A stretch of DNA of 64,000 nt from an uncultured cyanobacterium (lineage in GTDB: Bacteria > Cyanobacteriota > Cyanobacteriia > PCC-9006 > JAAUQQ01). The notes under the pieces are model-generated. The model was not told where the DNA came from, did not search any database, and saw nothing but the letters and a program-made list of their open reading frames with translations. Of this stretch, positions 45,177 through 56,301 are shown in pieces. How positions within the stretch are numbered: the stretch's first letter is position 1; each line of letters starts with the position of its first letter. The position numbers were made by a program, and so were the translations under genes. The stretch lies in the NCBI GenBank assembly GCA_963718615.1, contig OY970368.1, positions 896,001-960,000 of the forward strand. The letters are read 5' to 3'.

Positions 45177-47234
45177 CTAATCCCCCGATTCCACAATCCA
45201 ATTCAACGCATATTCAACTCGCTTCTGCCCGCCGTTCACCACCACAAATTCGTACAGTCCCGTTTCCGCTAGCGTTCCCTCCCAGTGGTAATCCCCAGAG
45301 AGAGACTGGAGAGCAGACCGCTGGGCAGTTGGGGGATAAATGGCTAAACTCAAACCGGGAGGAGCTTCCAGGGTGACGCGCAAATGCTGACCGGCTTTGA
45401 GATTGGCGATCGCCACCCTCCCCGACTGCGGCTCTACTCCTTTGCGCCAATAGCCATTCCCCGCCGCATCAATCGCCACAGTTGCCAAAGCATCTCCCTG
45501 GGTCACCGCCACGACCTGATCCTTCGCCATGGCCCGCCAAAGCTGATCGATGGCCCCATGGCCATCCCCCGGTTTACGAAGCGATTGCAGCTCGGGAAAG
45601 CGATCGCGAAACCCCAGATCCACCAGATCGTAAAGCGCTCGGCTACTGAGAGATTTTTGATTGACCTGGGCAATCCAGCCCTGGAGAACGCCGTCGCTGT
45701 AGGTTCCCAGTTGCGATCGCTGCTCAGGACTCAGCCGCGCTAACCGATCTAACCACTCCGCCGCCAAGGCATCCCAGGCGGCTCGTAGGGGGGCATCTTC
45801 AGGGGTCGTGCTCAAGTTGCGTCCGGCAAGGTCCGGGTGCGTGGCGTAAAAACTTTCGTTGATCAGTTGGTTATAAAAGGATGGGGGGATGTTGAGGCGA
45901 TCGCGCGCTTGCGTCAAAGCTTGTTTACGAGCCAACTCTTCGGCAGAAAGGGGCGGGGGTTCAGGACTGGTTTCCGGGATGGGGGTGGGGGATGGGGGGG
46001 CGAGGGATGGCGTGAGGGTGACGGCTGCGGGGTTGGGGTTCGGGAGCTGGTTTTGGCGGTGCAGGATCCCATAGGCGGTGCCTAGGGCCAGGATTGCTAA
46101 TACAATAATCTGTCCCCAAGACCGGGACCCAAGCCAAAACCTAGGGCGCTGGGAGGGGGCGGGGCTCGTTTGGGCAGGGGGGGGAGCTGTCACGGGGCCT
46201 TGGATGAGGTTCTGGGTAACGGAACTTTGGGTGACGGCACTTTGGGTAACGGAACTTTGGGTGATGGAACTTTGGGTTTTGAGCTGGGAGACCGCGACGA
46301 TTTGCGCTAGGTCCTGGAGGGCGGCGGCGGCGCTGGGGTAGCGATTGGCAGGGCGGAGTGCAACCATGCGGTAGAGGACGTTGCCTAGCCCTGGATTAAG
46401 GGGTAACGTTTGGGGCCAGGTCCATTCCAACGTATGAACATCCATCAGCCGCTGGGGTTCCCAGCCGCTCAGAAGCGTCAGCGCGGTTACGCCCAGAGCA
46501 TAAACATCACTGTGGGGAAACACCGCCCCATGCTGCATTTGTTCCGGCGGCGCATAGCCCAGTTTGCCCAGACGGGTGCCGTGAACGGTTGTCGCCTGGG
46601 CGGCGCTCGGGCTCATCATTTGCGAGAGCACGGTGACAGCGGCCTGTTTGACCGCCCCAAAGTCGATCAGCACGGGTAAACCGTCGGGTCGCTGGATTAA
46701 ATTATCCGGTGCAATATCCCGGTGAATCATGCCCTGCTGGTGCAGATAGTCCAGCACTGGCAAAATCTGCCGCAACAGCAAGGCTACTTCCGCTTCGCTC
46801 AGGGTTTGGCCCTGGCGCTGTCGCTCCTGGAGCCAGGTTTGGTAGGTGCGTCCTTCGATGTAGTCTTGCACCAAAAACAAATAGTCGTAGCCGCCAAACG
46901 GAAGCCGCCGCAGTTCGCGGAACTTGGGAATTTGCGGATGATCGAGGCGGTAAAGGACCCCCGCTTCCCGCTCAAATAGCCGCTGGGCCTTTTCTAACCC
47001 GGCAGTTCCCTGGACCTGAGGGGCAAACTCCTTCAGCACGCAGGTTTCGTCAAACCGCTGGGTGTCCTTGGCCAGATAGCTGCGGCCAAAGCCGCCTTGA
47101 CCGAGCATTCGGAGGATGCAGTAGCGATCGCCCAACAAAGCCCCCGAAGGAATGATCGGTGCAAACAGCGAAGGGGAATGGGGGAGGGGAGTCACCATAG
47201 GAATTATCCAGCGCAGGATGGGCGATCGCACCAA
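45177..47234 (-). CDS. Membrane Ser/Thr protein kinase (Spk family)
   Basis: LGQGGFG, VLKEF, HRDIAPDN, DFG, GYAPPEQ; TM helix; extracytoplasmic C-terminal domain. Confidence 0.94.
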   Translation of the reverse strand: MVRSPILRWIIPMVTPLPHSPSLFAPIIPSGALLGDRYCILRMLGQGGFGRSYLAKDTQRFDETCVLKEFAPQVQGTAGLEKAQRLFEREAGVLYRLDHPQIPKFRELRRLPFGGYDYLFLVQDYIEGRTYQTWLQERQRQGQTLSEAEVALLLRQILPVLDYLHQQGMIHRDIAPDNLIQRPDGLPVLIDFGAVKQAAVTVLSQMMSPSAAQATTVHGTRLGKLGYAPPEQMQHGAVFPHSDVYALGVTALTLLSGWEPQRLMDVHTLEWTWPQTLPLNPGLGNVLYRMVALRPANRYPSAAAALQDLAQIVAVSQLKTQSSITQSSVTQSAVTQSSVTQNLIQGPVTAPPPAQTSPAPSQRPRFWLGSRSWGQIIVLAILALGTAYGILHRQNQLPNPNPAAVTLTPSLAPPSPTPIPETSPEPPPLSAEELARKQALTQARDRLNIPPSFYNQLINESFYATHPDLAGRNLSTTPEDAPLRAAWDALAAEWLDRLARLSPEQRSQLGTYSDGVLQGWIAQVNQKSLSSRALYDLVDLGFRDRFPELQSLRKPGDGHGAIDQLWRAMAKDQVVAVTQGDALATVAIDAAGNGYWRKGVEPQSGRVAIANLKAGQHLRVTLEAPPGLSLAIYPPTAQRSALQSLSGDYHWEGTLAETGLYEFVVVNGGQKRVEYALNWIVESGD
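46213..46276. repeat. 15-bp in-frame tandem repeat x4
   Basis: TGGGTRAYGGMACTT units encoding TQSSI/TQSSV/TQSAV in the kinase linker. Confidence 0.9.
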
Positions 47235-47340
47235 AAGTCGCCACCACTAACGATAGGATAAAACACAGACCGCTGCTGAAAACCGCGCCGTCGGCAACTT
47301 GTTCTAATCCTTAAGTTTGGCTGCCCAGGTACCCACTGTG

Positions 47341-48453
47341 ATGAAATCGATTATCCCCGTCCCATTGCCCCAACAGTCCTACAACATCGCCATTGTGCCC
47401 GGCGGCTTGGCGCAGCTAGGGGATTGGATGGTGGTCCAGGATGGGGGGTTGAATCTGGGCAAAAAGGTGTTGCTGGTGTCCAATCCGGAGATTTTTGCAG
47501 TTTATGGCGATCGCGCCTGCCAATCTCTCCAAGCCGCAGGCTTTGACGTGGCGACTCACCTGATCCCAGCGGGGGAAGAACACAAACACCTGGGCTCGAT
47601 CCAAGCGCTCTACGACAGCGCCTTAAACCACAAGCTGGAGCGCTCTTCCACGCTGGTGGCCCTGGGCGGTGGCGTAATTGGCGATATGACGGGGTTCGCG
47701 GCGGCAACCTGGCTGCGGGGGATTAACTTTGTCCAGGTGCCGACGTCGCTATTGGCCATGGTCGATGCTTCAATTGGCGGCAAAACGGGGGTGAATCATC
47801 CCCAGGGGAAAAACCTGATTGGGGCGTTTTATCAACCGAAGCTGGTTCTCATTGACCCGACGGTCTTGGCAACGCTACCGGAGCGGGAGTTTCGAGCGGG
47901 AATGGCGGAAGTGATCAAATACGGGGTGATTTGGTCGGCGGAGCTGTTTGAAGCCTTGGAGCGCAATGAGCGATTGATGCAGCTAGAAGACCTGAGCCCG
48001 GAGTTGCAAACGGCGATTCTGGACCATTCCTGTCGGGCCAAGGCAGAGGTGGTGGGGAAGGACGAAAAGGAATCGGGGTTGCGGGCGATTTTGAATTACG
48101 GCCACACCATCGGCCACGCGGTGGAGAGTCTGACGGGCTACACCGTGGTCAATCATGGGGAAGCGGTGGGGATTGGTATGGTGGCGGCGGGTCATTTGGG
48201 TGTGGCGTTGGGGCTGTGGGATGAAGCCTCGAATGGGCGGCAGTTGGCGCTGATTGAAAAGGCGGGGTTGCCGACGCAATTACCGGCGGGGATTGATCTG
48301 GAAGCGATTATTGATGCTTTGCAAAGTGATAAGAAGGTAAAGGCTGGAAAAGTGCGGTTTATTTTGCCCCAGGCGATCCGTTCTGTGGTGATCACCGATG
48401 AGGTTTCGCGGGAGGTGTTGCGGGAGGTGTTGGCGGGGATGGAAAAATTTTAA
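47341..48453 (+). CDS. aroB: 3-dehydroquinate synthase
   Basis: [57 protein letters not shown]. Confidence 0.97.
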
Positions 48454-48540
48454 AATTAAAAAATAAAAAAAAACGCGCTGCGCGCGCAAGAGGAGAAAAG
48501 ACCCAAGGGCAGAGGGCAAAAGGTTAAGAAGTGTAAAGTG

Positions 48541-48669
48541 CTAGTGAGTCCTCGCGCTAACACACACCACCCGAAACCCGCAGTAGTAGTTGCGATTGTC
48601 GGGCGAAGCGTTGTTGCGGGAGGCCGAGCGGCAGTCCCTCGGAGATCTGAGCCACGAACCGCCCCGCAG
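48541..48669 (-). pseudogene. Orphan FGE-sulfatase (C-type lectin fold) C-terminus, DGR variable-region-like
   Basis: Minus strand reads LRGGSWLRSPRDCRSASRNNASPDNRNYYCGFRVVCVSARTH*; no upstream GNVWEW part; followed by a pyrimidine tract and a GCGCGCGCAGCGCG hairpin. Confidence 0.82.
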
Positions 48670-49109
48670 GCAAACTTTTGTCGAGTGGGTCACCCATGCT
48701 CGGTCTCGTTCGGTCTGGTCACAGGCATTTTATCAACAGCAACGACTGTCGGGTAAATCCCATCAAAAGGCCATTCGTGCTTTGGCTTATAAATGGGGGC
48801 GGATTCTTTGGCGATGTTGGCAGGATAGGACTCCTTATGATGAGGAAAAGTATCTCGCTGCTCTCCGGCGCAAAAACTCTCCTTTGGTCGCTCTTTTACC
48901 GGATTAGTTCTCTATCTTGTTGCTCGATTGAACTGCTTTAGGTTTTGAACCAATCGAATACAAAAAATACGAAGATGGCTCTGATAGACCAGTTTGGCTG
49001 ATACTCAAAACTGACTATTAGGTGGTTTGCGCTGGCTTCAATTCGCTCGGATATTACATCAGAGTTATTTTGTATCTTCTCTATTGACCCTGTCCGCCTC
49101 AGGGCCTAT
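48666..49109 (+). mobile_element. IS110 family remnant: transposase C-terminus plus 3' non-coding end
   Basis: RQTFVEW..SVWSQAFYQQQRLSGKSHQKAIRALAYKWGRILWRCWQDRTPYDEEKYL..SPL to TAG at 48907; N-terminal DEDD domain absent; right boundary inferred. Confidence 0.78.
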
Positions 49110-49119
49110 GTTATGCTGC
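49110..49119 (-). other. R'' box of the interrupted attC of cassette 2
   Basis: Minus strand GCAGCATAAC is the exact reverse complement of GTTATGCTGC at the start of this cassette (52286-52277); no complementary L'/R' arm found. Confidence 0.7.
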
Positions 49120-49356
49120 AATCTGGGCATAATGTGTTCCCCAAAATTTATCGGTTGGGCAGTAGAAGTTGTGGTTGGGAATGCATCCTACAAGCTCGGA
49201 GATTGCATTTCATCCCTAAAGCTGACTTCATAGAATCTTGAGCAAACTTGGGTAGCACGCCAGCCTGATTTTTTAATCAAATCGCTGATGACTCTATAGC
49301 CGTTTACATGAGGTAGATAGTTAATTTGGAACAGTTGAGCTAAAGAATACTTTCAG

Positions 49357-51981
49357 TTATTCAATTTTAGCAATCACTCGAAACTCATGCCTTGTTGAAG
49401 TGCCTTCAACAATCTCAGCGAAATAAGTTTTTCCACCAATGCGATCCCCTCTTTCTTCAAATTGAACTGTCCCTGTTGCTCCATCAAATTTAATGGTGGT
49501 CATGTTTCGTTGGATGGACTCTCGCGTGAATCCTCCTTGTAAGCTATCTTGTAAGCTATCTTGTAAGCTATCTTGTAAGCTATTGACCAGTGCCAAGACA
49601 GCATCATACGCCATTGGCGTGCGCCAAGTGCCTACAGCAGCACCCCAAAGTTTTTCAGCATCGTTCGCGAATTCTTGAGCCGCTTCAGAAATACTTGGAT
49701 CCCAAGGCGTTAAAACGACTGTTCCCAAAATATTTGTGTTTTCCGCCGCCAGGATTTCACCCAGATACATGGAGGGGCTGGCGACGACATCCTGCAAAGC
49801 TTTTTCCCCTTTTGCATAGTCTAATGCTTTAATAACCTCACTTGTATCCTCCGTCGATGGCACAATAAGGAGTCCGGTTGCTCCATCTTCTGTAAGTGTT
49901 TTCAGAAGCATCTCGTTTAAATCTGCCTGAGTAGCTTCAACACCAGCTTGAGCAACAGGACTGAGAATACTCTGAAAGTCGCAACTTCCTTTTAAGAGTT
50001 CAAAGTTATCATCGCTGGATTCTTTCTGCTTATCAATGATATCGCTTGTGAAGGAGTCACTAAAGAGTGAACCAGAATTGAAGCAAACAGAGACGTTCCC
50101 ACTCAAATTCTCTTTTGCGTACTGAATAAATGCCTCGGCTATCTCTTTATCATTTGGGACTGTTCGAAAAAAGTATTTACTCTTAACAGCTAAATCTGTC
50201 TCGCTGCTGGTGGGAGAGATAATAGTCAAGCCGAAGTCATCATAATCCTTGAGAGCGGCTTCAGTTGTACTGCTCGAATTGTGACCAACGACTGCCAGTA
50301 TGTCAGGGTCAGATCCGAAACTATTAGCCACCTGCGCCGCAACGGCACTTTCATTACCATCATCAGCAATCTCGACCTGTAGCAGGAAACCATTGTTTTG
50401 CATCCCTTCATTGCACGTAACTGTTGATTGCTTATTTCTGATTTCTTCTAAGATATCTGTAATTTCTCCGCAATTCTCCTTTGATTGTGCATGAGCAACC
50501 CCTCGAAGTATTTCTTCTGCCCGATCTTTTGATACGCCACTAATAGGGACGCTTACCCCTATCTTGACTACTTGTACATTTTCACCCTCTTTACGTTGTC
50601 TTTCAGCTTCTGCGTTGTTTAGATAGATAAGAGCTTCTGGATCATTTGGATAGCCCGTAAGCCACGCTTCCAGCACTTGCACAGCGTCTTCATATCTACC
50701 CTCTTGAAAATGGGCTTCAGCTAATTCTCTCAGAGCGTTCAGAGGACTGTCACTGTCACTCGCAATCAAAAACTCTTCGCCAAGACTCTTTCTAGACTCT
50801 GGAAGAGGATTACCGGCTTCAAAGATAGCTTCAAACAGCCTAGCCCCGACAGAGAAAACGAGACTGAATCCTATCAAGGCAACAAAGATATAGCCAACCA
50901 GCGAGGCAATAGGCTTGCGATCTTCGGATGCTGACTCAGGCGTTGATGGAGATGGTTCGGCAGCATCCCTTGGTGGAGGGGCATACGTTCGCGTCCTGCC
51001 TTCGGTTACACTTTCTTCTTCAGAGGAAGCTTCTTCTGTCGAGTCTTTTCTTGTAGGAACTTCTTTTGATAGAGAAGCTCCTCTTCGAAGGAGTGTTGGA
51101 TATTGATGCCCCTTCATACCTTCCATATGAACCGCGTTTCGACCATACTCACATGAATCCTCAATTGGGGTTCCTGCACCGAGTGCATCATAAAAGCCAA
51201 TTGCAAATTCAATCGCTGCCTCATCGCCAATAGCCTTACTCATACCGATGACGTAGTTGATATGCCGACTGATGGCTTCAGCCTGAAACTCGGAGTAACA
51301 AGCATTGAGGACAACGCATTCAACTGTTTCCGAACAGAGTTTAAAGAGATTGGCGAGAGCTTCGCTATCAAGTAAGTGATAAGCCCCTAATCTGTTTTCT
51401 ACCACTAATCCATCTTCGCCAGCACCGTGCCCTGCAAAATGTATCAAGTTTGGTTTACAGTCCAAAATTTTCCGTCTTATATCTTTGGTACGGACTGCGC
51501 CAGCTATTTCTATAGAAAAGTTTGAGGAGTAACGAGATCTTTGAATCGCTTCTTGTATTTCTCGCACTTCCTCATTAAGGGACAACCGCTCCGTATTTTT
51601 AGGATTAGCCGATAATATTAATATTTTCCATGTTTTAGTTGGAGCCTTTACGATAGTAGGACTTGATGTTCCGTGACCGATTTCATACTTACTGATTAAT
51701 GTATCAAGCCATTGCTGGTTCTCAACGCCTGTAAATTGTCTTACGGCTTTTATAAATTTTCCTAAGGCATAAGTTCCATCATCCAGACGACCATAACTCG
51801 ATAATTGCTTAACAATTTGACTAGTTACAACAAACGTATCACCGGATAAATCAATCGTAGCGACAAACTGGCTCAACCCAGCAAAGTCAAGTATTGCCTG
51901 ACGACCAGGTTTCGTAGCTAGCTGTGGCAGATCCTTAAGGAGAATGACGAGGTGCTGGAAATCTTCAGTGCTAAGCTGCAT
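49357..51981 (-). CDS. Cassette-encoded EAD-like / CHAT protease / TM / branched-chain-amino-acid-type periplasmic binding protein fusion
   Basis: N-terminal helical domain resembling EAD8; ILILSANP..IHFAGHG..VVLNACYS..FAIGFYDALGAG (CHAT); TM LVGYIFVALIGFSLVFSV; PNDPEALIYLNNA; VVGHNSS, ISPTSS, YFFRTVPND, MAYDA, GATGTVQF (LivJ-type fold). Confidence 0.88.
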   Translation of the reverse strand: MQLSTEDFQHLVILLKDLPQLATKPGRQAILDFAGLSQFVATIDLSGDTFVVTSQIVKQLSSYGRLDDGTYALGKFIKAVRQFTGVENQQWLDTLISKYEIGHGTSSPTIVKAPTKTWKILILSANPKNTERLSLNEEVREIQEAIQRSRYSSNFSIEIAGAVRTKDIRRKILDCKPNLIHFAGHGAGEDGLVVENRLGAYHLLDSEALANLFKLCSETVECVVLNACYSEFQAEAISRHINYVIGMSKAIGDEAAIEFAIGFYDALGAGTPIEDSCEYGRNAVHMEGMKGHQYPTLLRRGASLSKEVPTRKDSTEEASSEEESVTEGRTRTYAPPPRDAAEPSPSTPESASEDRKPIASLVGYIFVALIGFSLVFSVGARLFEAIFEAGNPLPESRKSLGEEFLIASDSDSPLNALRELAEAHFQEGRYEDAVQVLEAWLTGYPNDPEALIYLNNAEAERQRKEGENVQVVKIGVSVPISGVSKDRAEEILRGVAHAQSKENCGEITDILEEIRNKQSTVTCNEGMQNNGFLLQVEIADDGNESAVAAQVANSFGSDPDILAVVGHNSSSTTEAALKDYDDFGLTIISPTSSETDLAVKSKYFFRTVPNDKEIAEAFIQYAKENLSGNVSVCFNSGSLFSDSFTSDIIDKQKESSDDNFELLKGSCDFQSILSPVAQAGVEATQADLNEMLLKTLTEDGATGLLIVPSTEDTSEVIKALDYAKGEKALQDVVASPSMYLGEILAAENTNILGTVVLTPWDPSISEAAQEFANDAEKLWGAAVGTWRTPMAYDAVLALVNSLQDSLQDSLQDSLQGGFTRESIQRNMTTIKFDGATGTVQFEERGDRIGGKTYFAEIVEGTSTRHEFRVIAKIE
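49536..49583. repeat. 12-bp perfect tandem repeat x4
   Basis: CTTGTAAGCTAT x4, encoding SLQD repeats. Confidence 0.95.
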
Positions 51982-52279
51982 GTCTAGCGATCTTCCTCAA
52001 AGGACAACGAGGGAACGTACCCGGATTTCAGGATCTCTAACGCTTGGAACTACTTACAAAATTCGGCTCATGTTAATGGAAATGTTGACAGGAAAGTGTT
52101 TTGATAAACACCTAGACGCAATTTTAAGAGAATTCTGATCTTTTTTCACAATTTCGCCAAGTTTATTAGCGTGAATTCCCAATTGTTCCAATACTGTGAC
52201 TTCTGTCACTAAACTGCATGACGAAATGCTGCGTGACAAGCAGATGAACTTCAAGTACCTTCACAACAGAGGACTAGCA

Positions 52280-52395
52280 GCATAACGATTTAGCTCAGCC
52301 GCGCCAAGAAATCTAGCTATTATCAACGCATGTTGATAGCGCGGCTGGCTCATCAATCCTTTTTTTGTGGCGTCGGTTGCAGCGATGTGTTAATT
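52280..52395 (-). other. attC site (116 bp)
   Basis: Minus strand AATTAAC-acatc-GCTGCAACCGACGCC...GGCGCGGCTGAGC-taaatc-GTTATGC: R''/L''/L'/R' layout with two unpaired bases, as in canonical attC sites. Confidence 0.9.
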
Positions 52396-52424
52396 CGTAG
52401 CGGAGTTGTTTACAGTGTTCCCAA

Positions 52425-52450
52425 GCGCTAACATTAAATCTATAGGCAAG
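52425..52450 (-). other. Putative attI recombination site
   Basis: Minus strand TTGCCTATAGATTTAAT-GTTAGCGC; GTT core between the intI upstream region and the first attC. Confidence 0.6.
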
Positions 52451-52490
52451 CCTCCTCAGTGATTCATATTTCCGCTGCGATTTAACTCTT

Positions 52491-52627
52491 AATAGGCAGA
52501 AATTTTCTGTATATCATCCTCATAGAGCATGATAGCCAGAAACTTTCTACATATCCCCTAGACGATATCCCGAAACTTTCCGTATAACCCGCATATAGGG
52601 GTGATAGGCAGAAATATTCTTCATATC
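52491..52627. repeat. Four imperfect palindromic 25-bp repeats between attI and intI
   Basis: AATAGGCAGAAATTTTCTGTATATC (52491), GATAGCCAGAAACTTTCTACATATC (52531), GATATCCCGAAACTTTCCGTATAAC (52564), GATAGGCAGAAATATTCTTCATATC (52603). Confidence 0.85.
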
Positions 52628-52634
52628 GCCCACC

Positions 52635-53606
52635 ATGGAAAACCGGCCTAAGAAGCTCCTAGAACAGGTTAGTGAGCAAATTCGCCTTAAACACTACTCT
52701 TATCGTACCGAGGAAACCTATATTCAGTGGATAAAACGTTACATTCTGTTTCACAATAAGCGTCATCCTAAGGATATGGGAGTCCCAGAAATTGAAGCAT
52801 TCCTAGGCCATCTGGCTGTCGAGGGAAAAGTCGCAGCCTCAACCCAAAATCAAGCGCTCAGCGCAATACTTTTCCTCTATCAACACGTCCTCAAACAAGA
52901 CCTAGACGGGCAAGTTGATGCAATCCGAGCCAAACGCCCTCACTACTTGCCGACTGTTCTTACCCCAGAAGAAGTTCGGGCCATCCTAACCCAGATGTCT
53001 GGCGTTCACCGACTCATTGTTCAAATCCTCTACGGGAGTGGTCTTAGGCAGACTGAATGTCTGAAATTACGCGTGAAAGACCTCGATTTCCAACAATCTC
53101 AAATTATTGTCAGGATGGGCAAAGGTGGCAAAGACCGCGTCACACCACTTCCTCAAAAGCTCACTGAGCCCCTACAGGAACACCTCCAAGCCATTCGCCG
53201 CCTCCACCAGCAAGATCTAGACCGTGGCTATGGACAAGTTCCACTCCCTTTTGCTATGGCCAAAAAACATCCTCATGCAGGACGGGACTGGCTCTGGCAG
53301 TTTGTCTTTCCGGCCATCAATATCAAAAAAGACGATAGTGCTCCCTTCCCTTACCGCCATCCACTCCACGAAACAGGTATCCAAAAAGCGCTCAAAGCAG
53401 CAACCTGTCTTGCAGGAATACAAAAGCGTGTGAGTTGCCACACCTTCCGCCACAGCTTCGCCCCCCATCTCCTACAAAACGGCTACGACATCCGCACCGT
53501 CCAAGAACTGTTGGGCCACAAAGATGTCAAGACAACCATGATCTACACCCATGTCCTCAATCGCGGAGGCCGAGGCGTTCGCAGTCCACTGGATATCACC
53601 TCGTAA
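52635..53606 (+). CDS. intI: Integron integrase (tyrosine recombinase)
   Basis: [45 protein letters not shown], IntI patch [51 protein letters not shown]. Confidence 0.96.
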
Positions 53607-54759
53607 TCTGGTCCACCACCCACCGAGCCGAAGCCGGAGCCAACAAAACACCATTGCGATAATGGCCCGTCGCCAGCAAAACATTGTCATAGCCCTGGAG
53701 CGTTTCCAAAATCGGAGCCGGACGGCCCTGGGGGCGGGGACGCAGACCCGACCAAGCGCGGACGATTTCCCCCTGGGCGAGGTCCGGGCAGAGCGCGATC
53801 GCCCCCCGCCACACCTGATCCAGCAAAGATTTATCCGCGATCGCCGCCATCCCCCCATCATCCGGCAATTCCACCGTCGCTCCCACCCAATATTCCGCCG
53901 CCTTAGGCGAAAGTTCCGTCTCCGTCATCCAGGGCTTCAGGAGCGGCACGATATGAATATCCTGGCCCGTAACCACCGGTTGCAGATGATCACCGCCCAA
54001 GGGCCGAGGCAACCACACCTGCAAGGCTTGGCCTAACACCGGACGAACCTCCAAAGGCGTTTGCAAACAACGGGTCAACGCCATCGAGCCCAACCCAGCG
54101 GTGATCACGACAATATCTGCCGGTTCAGAATCCTCCGCCCAGCAGACCTGGGTACAGTGGAGCAACGGGGAATCGAGGGCATCGGACGGGTTGGGGGTCA
54201 GGGTCGTGAGAAAAGCATCCACGGCGGCATCAAACCGGAAGCGTACGCCTCGCCGTTGGGCCGCTGTGACGAGGGCTTGGGTGAGCGCGGTGGGATCGAC
54301 CTGGCGATCGCCCTCAGAATACACCCCACCGATCAAATCTGGTCGCTGAGCATTGACTTGGGGATAGCGCTCCTGGAGGCGATCGCGGTCGAGGAGTTCC
54401 AGGGCAAAGCCCTGGTCTTGGCGGCTGGTTTGGAGCGATCGCCACCGCTCCCAGTCATCCCCCTCAAACAGCAATTTCAAAATGCCCTGGCGATTAAACG
54501 GCACATGCTGACCCGTCGCCGCTTCGAGCTCTGGAATCAGTTGCTCATAGCGCGCCAGACTCTCCCGCCGCAGTTGCCACTGGCGTCCTTTGACCTTATG
54601 GCTGATCACGCCCATGAGTACCCCCAAAGCCGCCGCCGTGCAGGCTTGGGCCGGGGGCTGGCGATCGAGCACCGTAATCTTTAATCCTGGAATATGGCTG
54701 AGTTCATAGGCCGTCATTGCCCCTACAACCCCGCAGCCGATAAGAGTCACCCGAGTCAC
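53596..54759 (-). CDS. FAD-dependent oxidoreductase (glycine oxidase/DadA family)
   Basis: [31 protein letters not shown]. Confidence 0.9.
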
Positions 54760-54879
54760 GTCCGTCCGTCCCCTTAAGGATTCGCTTTAATCATGAGACC
54801 CCACCGCCATCCGTTTGGGTAGGAGACGATGGGGTCAATGGGCATAGGGGGTATCACCCCATAAAGCTGGTTTGGGCGT

Positions 54880-56301
54880 CTATTCACCGTTGGAGGGGTC
54901 GGAGGTTGTGGCGATCGCCGCTTCTGCCGGTTGAACCGCAACCTCACCGCTGTCTCGATCAAAGGCAAACCGCAACAGCGGCGGAGCCAGGAACGTCGTC
55001 AAAATCACCATGACGATAATCGCCGCATTCAGCGAATCCGACAGGGCTCCACTGGCCGCGCCAACCCCAGCAAAGACCAAGCCCACCTCGCCCCGAGGAA
55101 TCATGCCAAAACCAATGGCTAGCTTGTTGACCTTTTCCGGGCCAAAGACCGTAAAGCCAGTGACAACCTTACCGATAATCGCCACGACAATCAAAAAGGC
55201 CGCAATAATCAAGCCCTCGCGGTTGCTTGGGTCCATCGGATTGAGCACCGACAGCTCGGTTTTGGCCCCGACACTGATGAAGAAAATCGGCACCAACACA
55301 TCGGCGATCGGCACCACCTGTTCTTCTAGCTCATGGCGTTTTTCGGTTTCGCCCAAAATCAAGCCCGCCGCAAAGGCTCCCAGAATCGCCTCTAGGTGAA
55401 TGACTGCACCGATATAGGACAACACCAGCGCCACGATCAGCGCCGCCACCAGGAGCTGACCGCGAGTTTTCATTTCGTTGACTACGCCCAGAAAATAGGG
55501 AGCCAACAGCCGCCCCACCACAATCGTGCCGATCAAAAAGGCCGCCGCGCTAAAAATCAGCAGCGCCACGTTGGTGAGCTTCACTTCGCCGGTTTTGGCC
55601 AAGCTCGCCACCACCGCCAGGACCACAATCCCGAGAATATCGTCGAGAATCGCCGCGCCAATAATAATTTGGCCTTCCCGCGAGCTGAGCTGGCGTAGTT
55701 CTGACAACACCTTGGCGGTAATGCCAATACTCGTTGCCGTCAGCGCCGCCCCCGCAAAGATCGCCGGGACCGTGGGCATGTTAAACAGCGCAATCAACCC
55801 CAGTGTCCCCAGGGCAAAGGGCGTCACCACCCCCACCACAGCCACCACGGCAGCCTGGGGACCGACCTTGATGAGTTCCTTCAGGTCCGACTCTAGGCCA
55901 ATTTCAAACAGGAGCAAAATAACCCCCATCTCGGCCAAGACGGAGATAACTTCACTTTGGGCCTTAAAGACCTCGGTGGCGATCGCCGGGGTCAATCCCG
56001 CTGTCTTTTCCAACATGCCGATCAGCATCGAGTCGGCGGCAACGGCTCCAGATTCCGGGAAGACCAGCAGATGCAGGGCCGAAACCCCCACCACCACGCC
56101 CCCCACCAATTCTCCGAGAACCGGCGGCAGATTAATGCGAGCACAGAGCTCCCCGCCAATTTTGCTGGCCAAAAAGACCACGACTAAACTGAGCAAAACC
56201 CCGGCAAGGACCAGCGGTGCCACTTCAGCCGAGGGGGCCTCGGCGGCTTCGGCCAAAAACCGCAGAGGCGTAAGGGTAGACGGAAGATCAAAAACGGACA
56301 T
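54880..56301 (-). CDS. nhaS3: CPA2 family Na+/H+ antiporter (NhaS3-like)
   Basis: LPPVLGEL, LFEIGLESD, ATSIGIT, AAILDDILG, GMIPRGEVGL; ATG 56301 preferred. Confidence 0.88.
   Translation of the reverse strand: MSVFDLPSTLTPLRFLAEAAEAPSAEVAPLVLAGVLLSLVVVFLASKIGGELCARINLPPVLGELVGGVVVGVSALHLLVFPESGAVAADSMLIGMLEKTAGLTPAIATEVFKAQSEVISVLAEMGVILLLFEIGLESDLKELIKVGPQAAVVAVVGVVTPFALGTLGLIALFNMPTVPAIFAGAALTATSIGITAKVLSELRQLSSREGQIIIGAAILDDILGIVVLAVVASLAKTGEVKLTNVALLIFSAAAFLIGTIVVGRLLAPYFLGVVNEMKTRGQLLVAALIVALVLSYIGAVIHLEAILGAFAAGLILGETEKRHELEEQVVPIADVLVPIFFISVGAKTELSVLNPMDPSNREGLIIAAFLIVVAIIGKVVTGFTVFGPEKVNKLAIGFGMIPRGEVGLVFAGVGAASGALSDSLNAAIIVMVILTTFLAPPLLRFAFDRDSGEVAVQPAEAAIATTSDPSNGE

Follow-up and report, generated by a model that had tools for sequence, protein, structure and literature searches.

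Does a cyanobacterial integron whose cassette array abuts the C-terminal end of an FGE-sulfatase gene join two diversification systems in one locus, the shuffling of cassettes by an integrase and the adenine-directed mutagenesis of a diversity-generating retroelement (DGR), or have its parts been brought together by accident? The locus lies at positions 48460-53606 of a 64,000-nucleotide stretch of DNA from an uncultured cyanobacterium (assembly GCA_963718615.1, contig OY970368.1, positions 896,001 to 960,000 of the forward strand), which is called the window hereafter and belongs to a genome of one contig (6.10 Mb, GC 0.52, completeness 100%). An earlier reading of the letters alone, referred to as the original prediction, had proposed that the array position after the second cassette once held a DGR target gene, with two diversification systems nested in the same locus. 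The comparisons described below very probably point to a plainer arrangement: a genuine small sedentary chromosomal integron, whose second attC was hit by an insertion sequence (IS) and which was then fused by deletion to the tail of a neighbouring FGE gene, with no combination of integron and DGR.

The integrase gene intI, predicted on the plus strand, is present and intact (52635-53606, 323 aa). Its TIGR02249 match spans profile positions 1-313 of 315 and scores 444.2 bits (cut-off 265), and it is the sole copy above this cut-off in the genome. None of 14 control genomes had a match above the cut-off, and the Xer-type recombinases found there matched below it. Four decayed copies of intI lie elsewhere in the genome (3859666-3860405, 4712672-4713822, 4646232-4646402, and 1907122-1907277), and only the window copy is intact.

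The attI-like core of the original prediction was also confirmed, and its position could be fixed by the relic at 1.907 Mb. A segment of 286 bp, reaching from inside intI to 52483, recurs at 91% identity beside this decayed intI, and read on the minus strand the window is identical to the relic through ...CTGCCTATTAAGAG|TTA and diverges beyond. GTTAAAT (52486-52480, minus strand) is the single exact GTTRRRY within 52250-52640, and because the relic diverges precisely there, the crossover G|TTAAAT was taken as the attI core of an attI region at 52480-52634 on the minus strand. The interval between the crossover and the start of intI is filled by four 24-nt direct repeats (52492-52627), which are 75-100% alike, spaced by 33-40 nt, each near-palindromic, and conserved in the 1.907-Mb relic. 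These repeats may bind IntI or a regulator; among 161 loci searched, including 30 other cyanobacterial intI loci, the four-repeat motif matched only this genome's own loci. Within 52250-52760 there was a single promoter-like match, on the plus strand and directed toward intI, and none that would read into the array as Pc.

Next to attI, a canonical attC had been predicted. A site of this kind is supported by the comparison of copies and ends in GTTATGC with a predicted palindromic stem, but its first box is non-canonical, and the cassette of ~200 bp that it closes had not been separated out. This cassette 1 (52485-52286, minus strand) contains no open reading frame (ORF) of 20 aa or more. The segment 52486-52283 (204 bp) recurs in the genome at 97% identity (5044951-5045154) and at 90% identity (4665770-4665997). 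Each copy begins with G|TTAAAT; the end is ...AAATCG|TTA in two of them and different (...AAATTGATAGCC) in the 90% copy, while the sequence beyond differs at each of the three sites and homology stops inside the core GTTATGC. Since the copies share their boundaries and have different sequence beyond them, cassette 1 can be treated as a discrete cassette, and, as far as such copies can tell, boundaries at G|TT in three independent copies are no chance arrangement. For the 3' half of cassette 1 a GC-rich stem is predicted that has one unpaired base (z -2.3 to -3.3), and the predicted fold and the comparison of copies together place its probable attC, an imperfect palindrome, at ~52280-52396 on the minus strand with the core GTTATGC at 52286-52280. 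A search of 47000-55000 with Rfam (E<=1) returned 0 matches, hence neither an attC nor an IS guide RNA model matched. One contig of read run X6 matches the window up to 52486 and then continues with 569 letters unlike the window. Similar attC-like ends stand ahead of the other two copies of cassette 1, a sign that these sites may be attC clusters that lack an integrase. A genome-wide scan for pairs of RYYYAAC and GTTRRRY, which returned 96 pairs with no useful clustering, was crude and was dropped.

The second cassette (49109-52285, minus strand) retains 3,177 bp with a GC of 0.44 and a GC at third codon positions (GC3) of 0.36, and contains the CHAT-receptor gene (49357-51981, minus strand, 874 aa). 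It starts with TTATGCTGC at 52285 (minus strand), and ~240 nt past the CHAT stop codon stands GCAGCATAAC (49118-49109, minus strand), which is the exact complement of G+TTATGCTGC (52286-52277) over 10 nt. Because the start and the surviving box are exactly complementary, the CHAT gene can be assigned to the second cassette and the box, the first of the attC (R'' side), to the same cassette, in line with the cassette status originally given to this gene. GCAGCATAAC is all that is left of the second attC, and an element of the IS110 family adjoins it, which was likewise foreseen.

This IS stump (48668-~49108, plus strand) consists of the last ~440-450 bp of an IS1111-type element of ~1.9 kb, with the transposase C-terminus running to a stop at 48907 and a non-coding tail of ~200 bp behind it. 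Its ORF covers positions 282-343 of 343 of NF033542, the last ~60 residues of an IS110-family transposase, and the stump is 95-96% identical to the right ends of four other copies. The single full copy in the genome (2245116-2247013) encodes a 421-aa protein with DEDD_Tnp_IS110 (PF01548) and Transposase_20 (PF02371), and a full relative of 72% identity lies at 1.919 Mb. All copies were compared by BLAST, as internal deletions made a MAFFT alignment of four copies unreadable. The copies are flanked by a RYYYAAC-type box and a palindromic attC body on one side and by GTTAKGC on the other (8/8 right ends and 5/5 left ends inspected), and the right end adjoins the surviving attC box in the window as it does such boxes at other copies. 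Five copies have an intI, intact or decayed, within 15 kb, and all five lie on its array side and on the intI strand. Homologous transposases (51-66% identity) were present in two of 40 array-side stretches from other cyanobacteria; these stretches, of up to 15 kb each, belong to 40 intI genes that were picked for long contigs from more than 150 matches listed. Judged by its flanks, the element is an attC-seeking relative of IS1111 which has, with its short deletion derivatives, spread through the arrays of this genome. Three such derivatives of ~1 kb (3852922-3853986, 3845755-3846752, and 4716675-4717592) have the same internal deletion of 830 bp; they resemble miniature inverted-repeat transposable elements, and each occupies an array next to a decayed intI. 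PMC11187229 describes members of IS1111 that insert at one end of attC and whose transposase gene is followed by a non-coding region.

Where the stump meets the FGE sequence, IS homology starts at 48668 and homology to FGE paralogs reaches 48669-48670, an overlap of 2-3 nt. The break at 48668 is an internal position of the IS and distinct from the point where the short derivatives have their deletion, and as it is internal and no IS end is involved, the junction appears to be illegitimate and to have formed without transposition. No left part of the IS ending at a matching position, as a reciprocal junction would have, was found among the IS copies of the genome, and no orphan FGE N-terminus among its 12 FGE-sulfatase matches. 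A deletion would have made this junction, or else a rearrangement whose other product was lost. The stump and the junction agree with the proposed event that removed the left part of the IS together with the rest of the attC.

The FGE C-terminus had been recognised correctly as well. A 50-aa ORF on the minus strand ends with 42 codons and a stop that match the end of the FGE-sulfatase domain (remnant at 48541-48669, minus strand; PF03781, E=1e-5, profile 214-254 of 255). The C-terminus of FGE, which has a C-type-lectin fold, is the variable region in DGR targets. The remnant is 53-55% identical to FGE proteins encoded beside the DGR reverse transcriptases (RTs) of relatives, and it does belong to the C-terminal family that is diversified by DGRs in these relatives.

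The step from there to a DGR target in the next array position was not borne out. The remnant has a GC of 0.64 and a GC3 of 0.79, against a GC3 of 0.36 for the CHAT cassette and of 0.68-0.69 for the two flanking chromosomal genes, aroB and a FAD-dependent oxidoreductase gene (DAO). It shares ~70% nucleotide identity with the 3' ends of eight paralogs, and among 11 paralogs, 10 have a GC of 0.56-0.69 at the 3' end, within backbone contexts of 0.52-0.57. A hairpin resembling an intrinsic terminator follows on the FGE strand 53 nt after the stop codon (48464-48488, minus strand; stem 48487-48473 with 6 pairs, then TTTTTTTTAT, with a run of nine T). The last cassette of an array would carry an attC, and no exact GTTRRRY or RYYYAAC is found between 48440 and 49150. 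The screen of cyanobacterial arrays for FGE cassettes, which had been suggested as a check, found the domain in none of the 40 array-side stretches (559,612 nt), and the same stretches held no homolog of the small ORF that stands in the accessory position at RT loci of relatives. The 11 full FGE paralogs are all more than 100 kb away from any intI relic. Composition, terminator, the lack of an attC, and the screen of 40 arrays thus argue that the remnant is a chromosomal neighbour and not a cassette. One of the 40 stretches, in another cyanobacterial integron, contains a weak RT-like match (L123:12377-13054, 25% identity to a DGR RT), which might be an attC-targeting group II intron.

The idea of two nested systems further depends on a DGR, and the genome has 12 FGE-sulfatase matches and 0 matches to PF00078. 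Among 30 relatives, PF00078 matches occur in 17, including ORFs of 360-390 aa, which is the size of a DGR RT. Four RT loci of relatives were compared: FGE genes lie beside the RT in all four, and a small ORF, a candidate accessory gene by its position, is present in three. The four RT ORFs and the three small ORFs have no tblastn match in the genome at E<=1e-4, while the FGE neighbours of these RTs match all of its paralogs. Adenine mutagenesis cannot operate here, because both the RT and the accessory gene are missing from the genome.

A relic resembling a template repeat (TR), AAC-rich and 73 nt long, is found at 5133911-5133983 (locus 5133851-5133985, L091), in a tandem of three FGE genes and in the space between two of them. 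The relic differs from the variable region of the next gene at 13 positions, 11 of them relic adenines, and four further paralogs are 66-78% identical to it, adenines being the site of most of their mismatches or of the largest share. Aligned with the same relic, the remnant shows 39 mismatches over 110 positions (65% identity), of which 16 fall at adenines and 23 do not, and synonymous scaffold sites differ too. The remaining matches of the remnant in the genome are all 3' ends of paralogs, and with every paralog its identity is 53-71% and there is no adenine bias in either direction. By these traces the genome once had a DGR and is now without its RT, the target family and a template relic persisting, and by the same comparison the remnant pairs with no template in the genome. 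With no RT, no RT relic, and no TR that matches the remnant in an adenine-specific manner, the nested systems of the original prediction are not supported, and the outcome that it had named as refuting them, a genome with no RT or TR matching this segment, is the one observed.

The protein of cassette 2 has to be described before other origins of the lost gene can be weighed. Its domains come in the order EAD8-CHAT-(hydrophobic segment)-TPR-periplasmic-binding protein (Peripla_BP_6/ANF_receptor), the hydrophobic stretch lying at residues ~365-395 as read by eye, and it matches PADLOC 'chat' with E=2.6e-12. Such an order would make it a membrane receptor that binds its ligand in the periplasm and has a caspase-like protease on the cytoplasmic side. 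In 400 other cyanobacterial genomes sampled no full-length relative was found; nearly all the matches listed cover only residues ~100-330, at ~45-59% identity, and one covers 395-860 at 40%. A search of a collection of genome contigs from other organisms with the CHAT protein found no related locus, and megablast of 48600-53700 against plasmids gave no match. Toward the 3' end of the gene, four perfect 12-nt units in tandem (49536-49583) are translated as (SLQD)n within the periplasmic-binding domain, and this repeat is a possible slippage site.

EAD8 (PF19961) is rare, being found in 7 of 201 cyanobacterial genomes, and here occurs once, in the CHAT cassette protein only. Since the genome has no second EAD8 protein, this adaptor is partnerless. 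Small EAD8 effectors at other loci are each followed by a gene in the same direction that has an EAD8 as well (4/4 cases). The effectors there are of the EAD8-trypsin or PNP-EAD8 type (L087:7073-9438, L088:5789-8185, L084:3281-8154, and L086:5110-9698), and the second genes at the four loci encode EAD8-FGE, EAD8-unknown, EAD8-nSTAND1-WD40, and EAD8 followed by NB-ARC-TPR. In genome G165, the neighbour of the effector is an EAD8-FGE protein of 420 aa, and the composition of the pair is uniform (GC3 0.28 and 0.27, FGE tail 0.30). EADs sit on both effectors and core components in the systems treated in parts of Kaur et al. (2020, PMC7159879), and DGR targets of the EAD8-nSTAND1-FGE kind beside an EAD8 peptidase gene appear in parts of PMC10907252.

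The course of events that would best account for the locus starts with IntI recombining cassettes at attI G|TTAAAT on the minus strand. An IS1111-type element would have inserted at the first box of the attC of cassette 2, after which an illegitimate deletion would have taken out ~1.45 kb at the left of the IS, what remained of the attC, and any sequence past it. The same deletion would have spared only the final 42 codons of a chromosomal FGE gene that stood tail-to-tail with aroB. This lost gene would have been one of a dozen native paralogs, some of whose ancestors were diversified by a DGR that is now dead. IntI may still move the cassette of ~200 bp and capture others, and the CHAT cassette would no longer be excisable, immobilised as it is by the loss of its attC. 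The adjacency of integron and FGE sequence would then be a scar and not a design.

Several points weigh against this course of events. The interval between aroB and DAO was compared in 30 relatives, all of them outside the source genus, and in none of these was the state before the deletion seen. In G001 and G003, neither flank lies beside an FGE gene or beside the other flank. With only 42 FGE codons left, the N-terminal architecture of the lost gene and its original distance to the array are unreadable. The attC sites were assigned by comparison of copies and by eye, and the first box of the attC of cassette 1 looked non-canonical by eye. Finally, the single EAD8 of the genome and the EAD8 pairs at 4/4 other loci make it conceivable that the CHAT gene and the lost gene could have been functionally linked.

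An alternative origin of the junction is that a remote FGE gene was joined to the IS by inversion or translocation, in which case the FGE gene would never have stood beside the array. A kinase-aroB pair is kept only in G001 and G003 of the 30 relatives (G016 has a weak partial kinase match), and downstream of the pair nothing is common to these two genomes and the window; G001 keeps the genes right of DAO and not the left side. The other neighbours of the flanks in G001 and G003 map to 3.69, 0.82, 0.98, and 1.89 Mb in the present genome (L031, L032, L058, and L059), and as they lie elsewhere, the integron locus is a synteny breakpoint. A rearrangement of this kind would suit aroB and DAO not being neighbours in G001 and G003, but it should have left a reciprocal junction, and no left part of the IS ends at a matching position and no orphan FGE N-terminus is among the 12 matches; it was judged unlikely. 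Read run X6 comes from a relative with ~98% identity on aroB, and three of its contigs match the remnant and run past 48669 into sequence that is not IS, in frame (...SERSRV|LRGGSW, minus strand). This is a weak hint that intact versions of the FGE gene, or paralogs, exist in that relative, be it beside aroB or elsewhere. In all four read runs 49209-50412 was uncovered, and in X6 so was 49209-52218, which includes the CHAT gene; this lack of cover is uninformative on absence. Cover within 50413-51616 was thin and patchy in X3 and X2, and X1, X2, and X3 gave short pieces, mostly <90% alike, which were left uninterpreted.

The other alternatives assign the lost FGE gene to a system. It might have been an EAD8-bearing, FGE-tipped partner of the EAD8-CHAT protein, whether a cassette or not, forming a two-gene conflict module whose effector was orphaned by the deletion. 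The partnerless CHAT protein with the only EAD8 of the genome would fit such a module, as would the EAD8 gene that follows a small EAD8 effector at 4/4 other loci (EAD8-FGE in G165) and the EAD8-nSTAND1-FGE target beside an EAD8-peptidase gene described in PMC10907252, as far as that source covers such pairs. Yet the G165 pair is uniform (GC3 0.28/0.27, tail 0.30), while CHAT and FGE differ by 0.43 here, a true attC start separates the two, the CHAT protein bears sensor domains of its own, and the N-terminus of the lost gene is unrecoverable, which leaves the partner gene a rather improbable explanation. The proposal that the array itself once continued with the FGE gene as a DGR-diversified cassette, and that a single repertoire of sensors was subject to both shuffling and adenine mutagenesis until the deletion, can appeal to a remnant that points the same way as the cassettes, stands immediately past the broken attC, and is of a family that DGRs diversify in relatives, in a genome that retains a TR-like relic and five paralogs with adenine-biased differences in their variable regions. 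It is nevertheless very improbable: a terminator and no attC follows the FGE stop codon, the GC3 of the remnant is 0.79 versus 0.36 for the cassette, the genome has neither RT nor accessory gene, 23 of the 39 mismatches to the TR relic are not at adenines, FGE occurs in 0/40 cyanobacterial arrays screened, and 0/11 full paralogs lie within 100 kb of an intI relic. It is just as doubtful that a lost EAD8-FGE sensor travelled with the EAD8-CHAT effector in the integron array and had its tip once diversified by a DGR; if it did, effector and sensor of a caspase-type immune module would both have come with integron cassettes, in an extinct coupling of cassette shuffling and targeted hypermutation.

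The preferred reading, an integron scarred by an IS insertion and a deletion, joins parts that are each known. Cyanobacteria are among the phyla with integrons in the parts of Cury et al. (2016, PMC4889954) that concern them, and intI was above the cut-off in 124 of the 401 cyanobacterial genomes sampled. The locus resembles sedentary chromosomal integrons (the 'complete integron' of IntegronFinder), as far as that source portrays them, in its IntI-specific profile, its attI beside intI, its cassettes on the opposite strand, its G|TT crossovers, its ORF-less cassette, its IS in the array, and its decayed intI copies and attC clusters elsewhere. It differs from them in having only two cassettes, the second unusually large (3.2 kb), and a deletion scar in place of the last attC.

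Tetu & Holmes 2008 and Post & Hall 2009 reportedly dealt with the IS1111-attC group. The present IS shares with members such as ISPst6 and ISKpn4, as portrayed in parts of PMC11187229, the DEDD transposase, the non-coding tail downstream, and insertion at an attC end in fixed orientation; it differs in its cyanobacterial host, in being a stump of 440 bp, and in its three derivatives of ~1 kb.

Vallota-Eastman 2020 is said to have treated cyanobacterial DGRs with FGE/C-type-lectin targets. The FGE C-terminus, the multiple paralogs, some of them far apart, and the AAC-rich TR-like relic are like those of such systems as parts of PMC10907252 and PMC7159879 present them, but here the genome has no RT or accessory gene and the remnant is unpaired with the relic. 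With the pairs of EAD8 effector and core in NTPase conflict systems, as outlined in Kaur et al. (2020, PMC7159879), the CHAT protein shares the fusion of an N-terminal EAD8 to a caspase-like peptidase; unlike these, it has no second EAD8 protein in the genome, its effector is fused to a TPR and periplasmic-binding sensor of its own, and it is an integron cassette.

Integrons in Cyanobacteria, IS1111 in attC, and DGR-diversified FGE sensors are thus all known, and the locus joins these known kinds by a scar. A pairing of integron and DGR, if true, would be a new principle; a limited literature search found no description of one, and the claim is not carried forward. The value of the locus lies elsewhere: copies within the same genome make the attI crossover and the cassette boundaries readable to the base, the orphan EAD8-CHAT protease-receptor cassette is in keeping with the idea of integron arrays as stores for components of conflict systems, and the genome offers an example of a DGR that has lost its RT, with its target family and a template relic persisting.

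Approximately 48750-53250 of the window is a low-GC island (GC 0.41-0.48), with flanks of GC 0.55-0.61, and a non-coding stretch of 650 bp separates the CHAT gene from intI. On the left, the chromosomal flank is aroB (3-dehydroquinate synthase, 47317-48453, plus strand; PF01761 and PF24621; GC 0.57, GC3 0.69), which is convergent with the FGE remnant. The right flank is DAO (53596-54759, minus strand; PF01266), whose end overlaps the convergent end of intI by 11 nt (53596-53606). A contig of read run X6 spans this intI/DAO junction (53513-53878), so that the position of the integron beside DAO is common to that relative.

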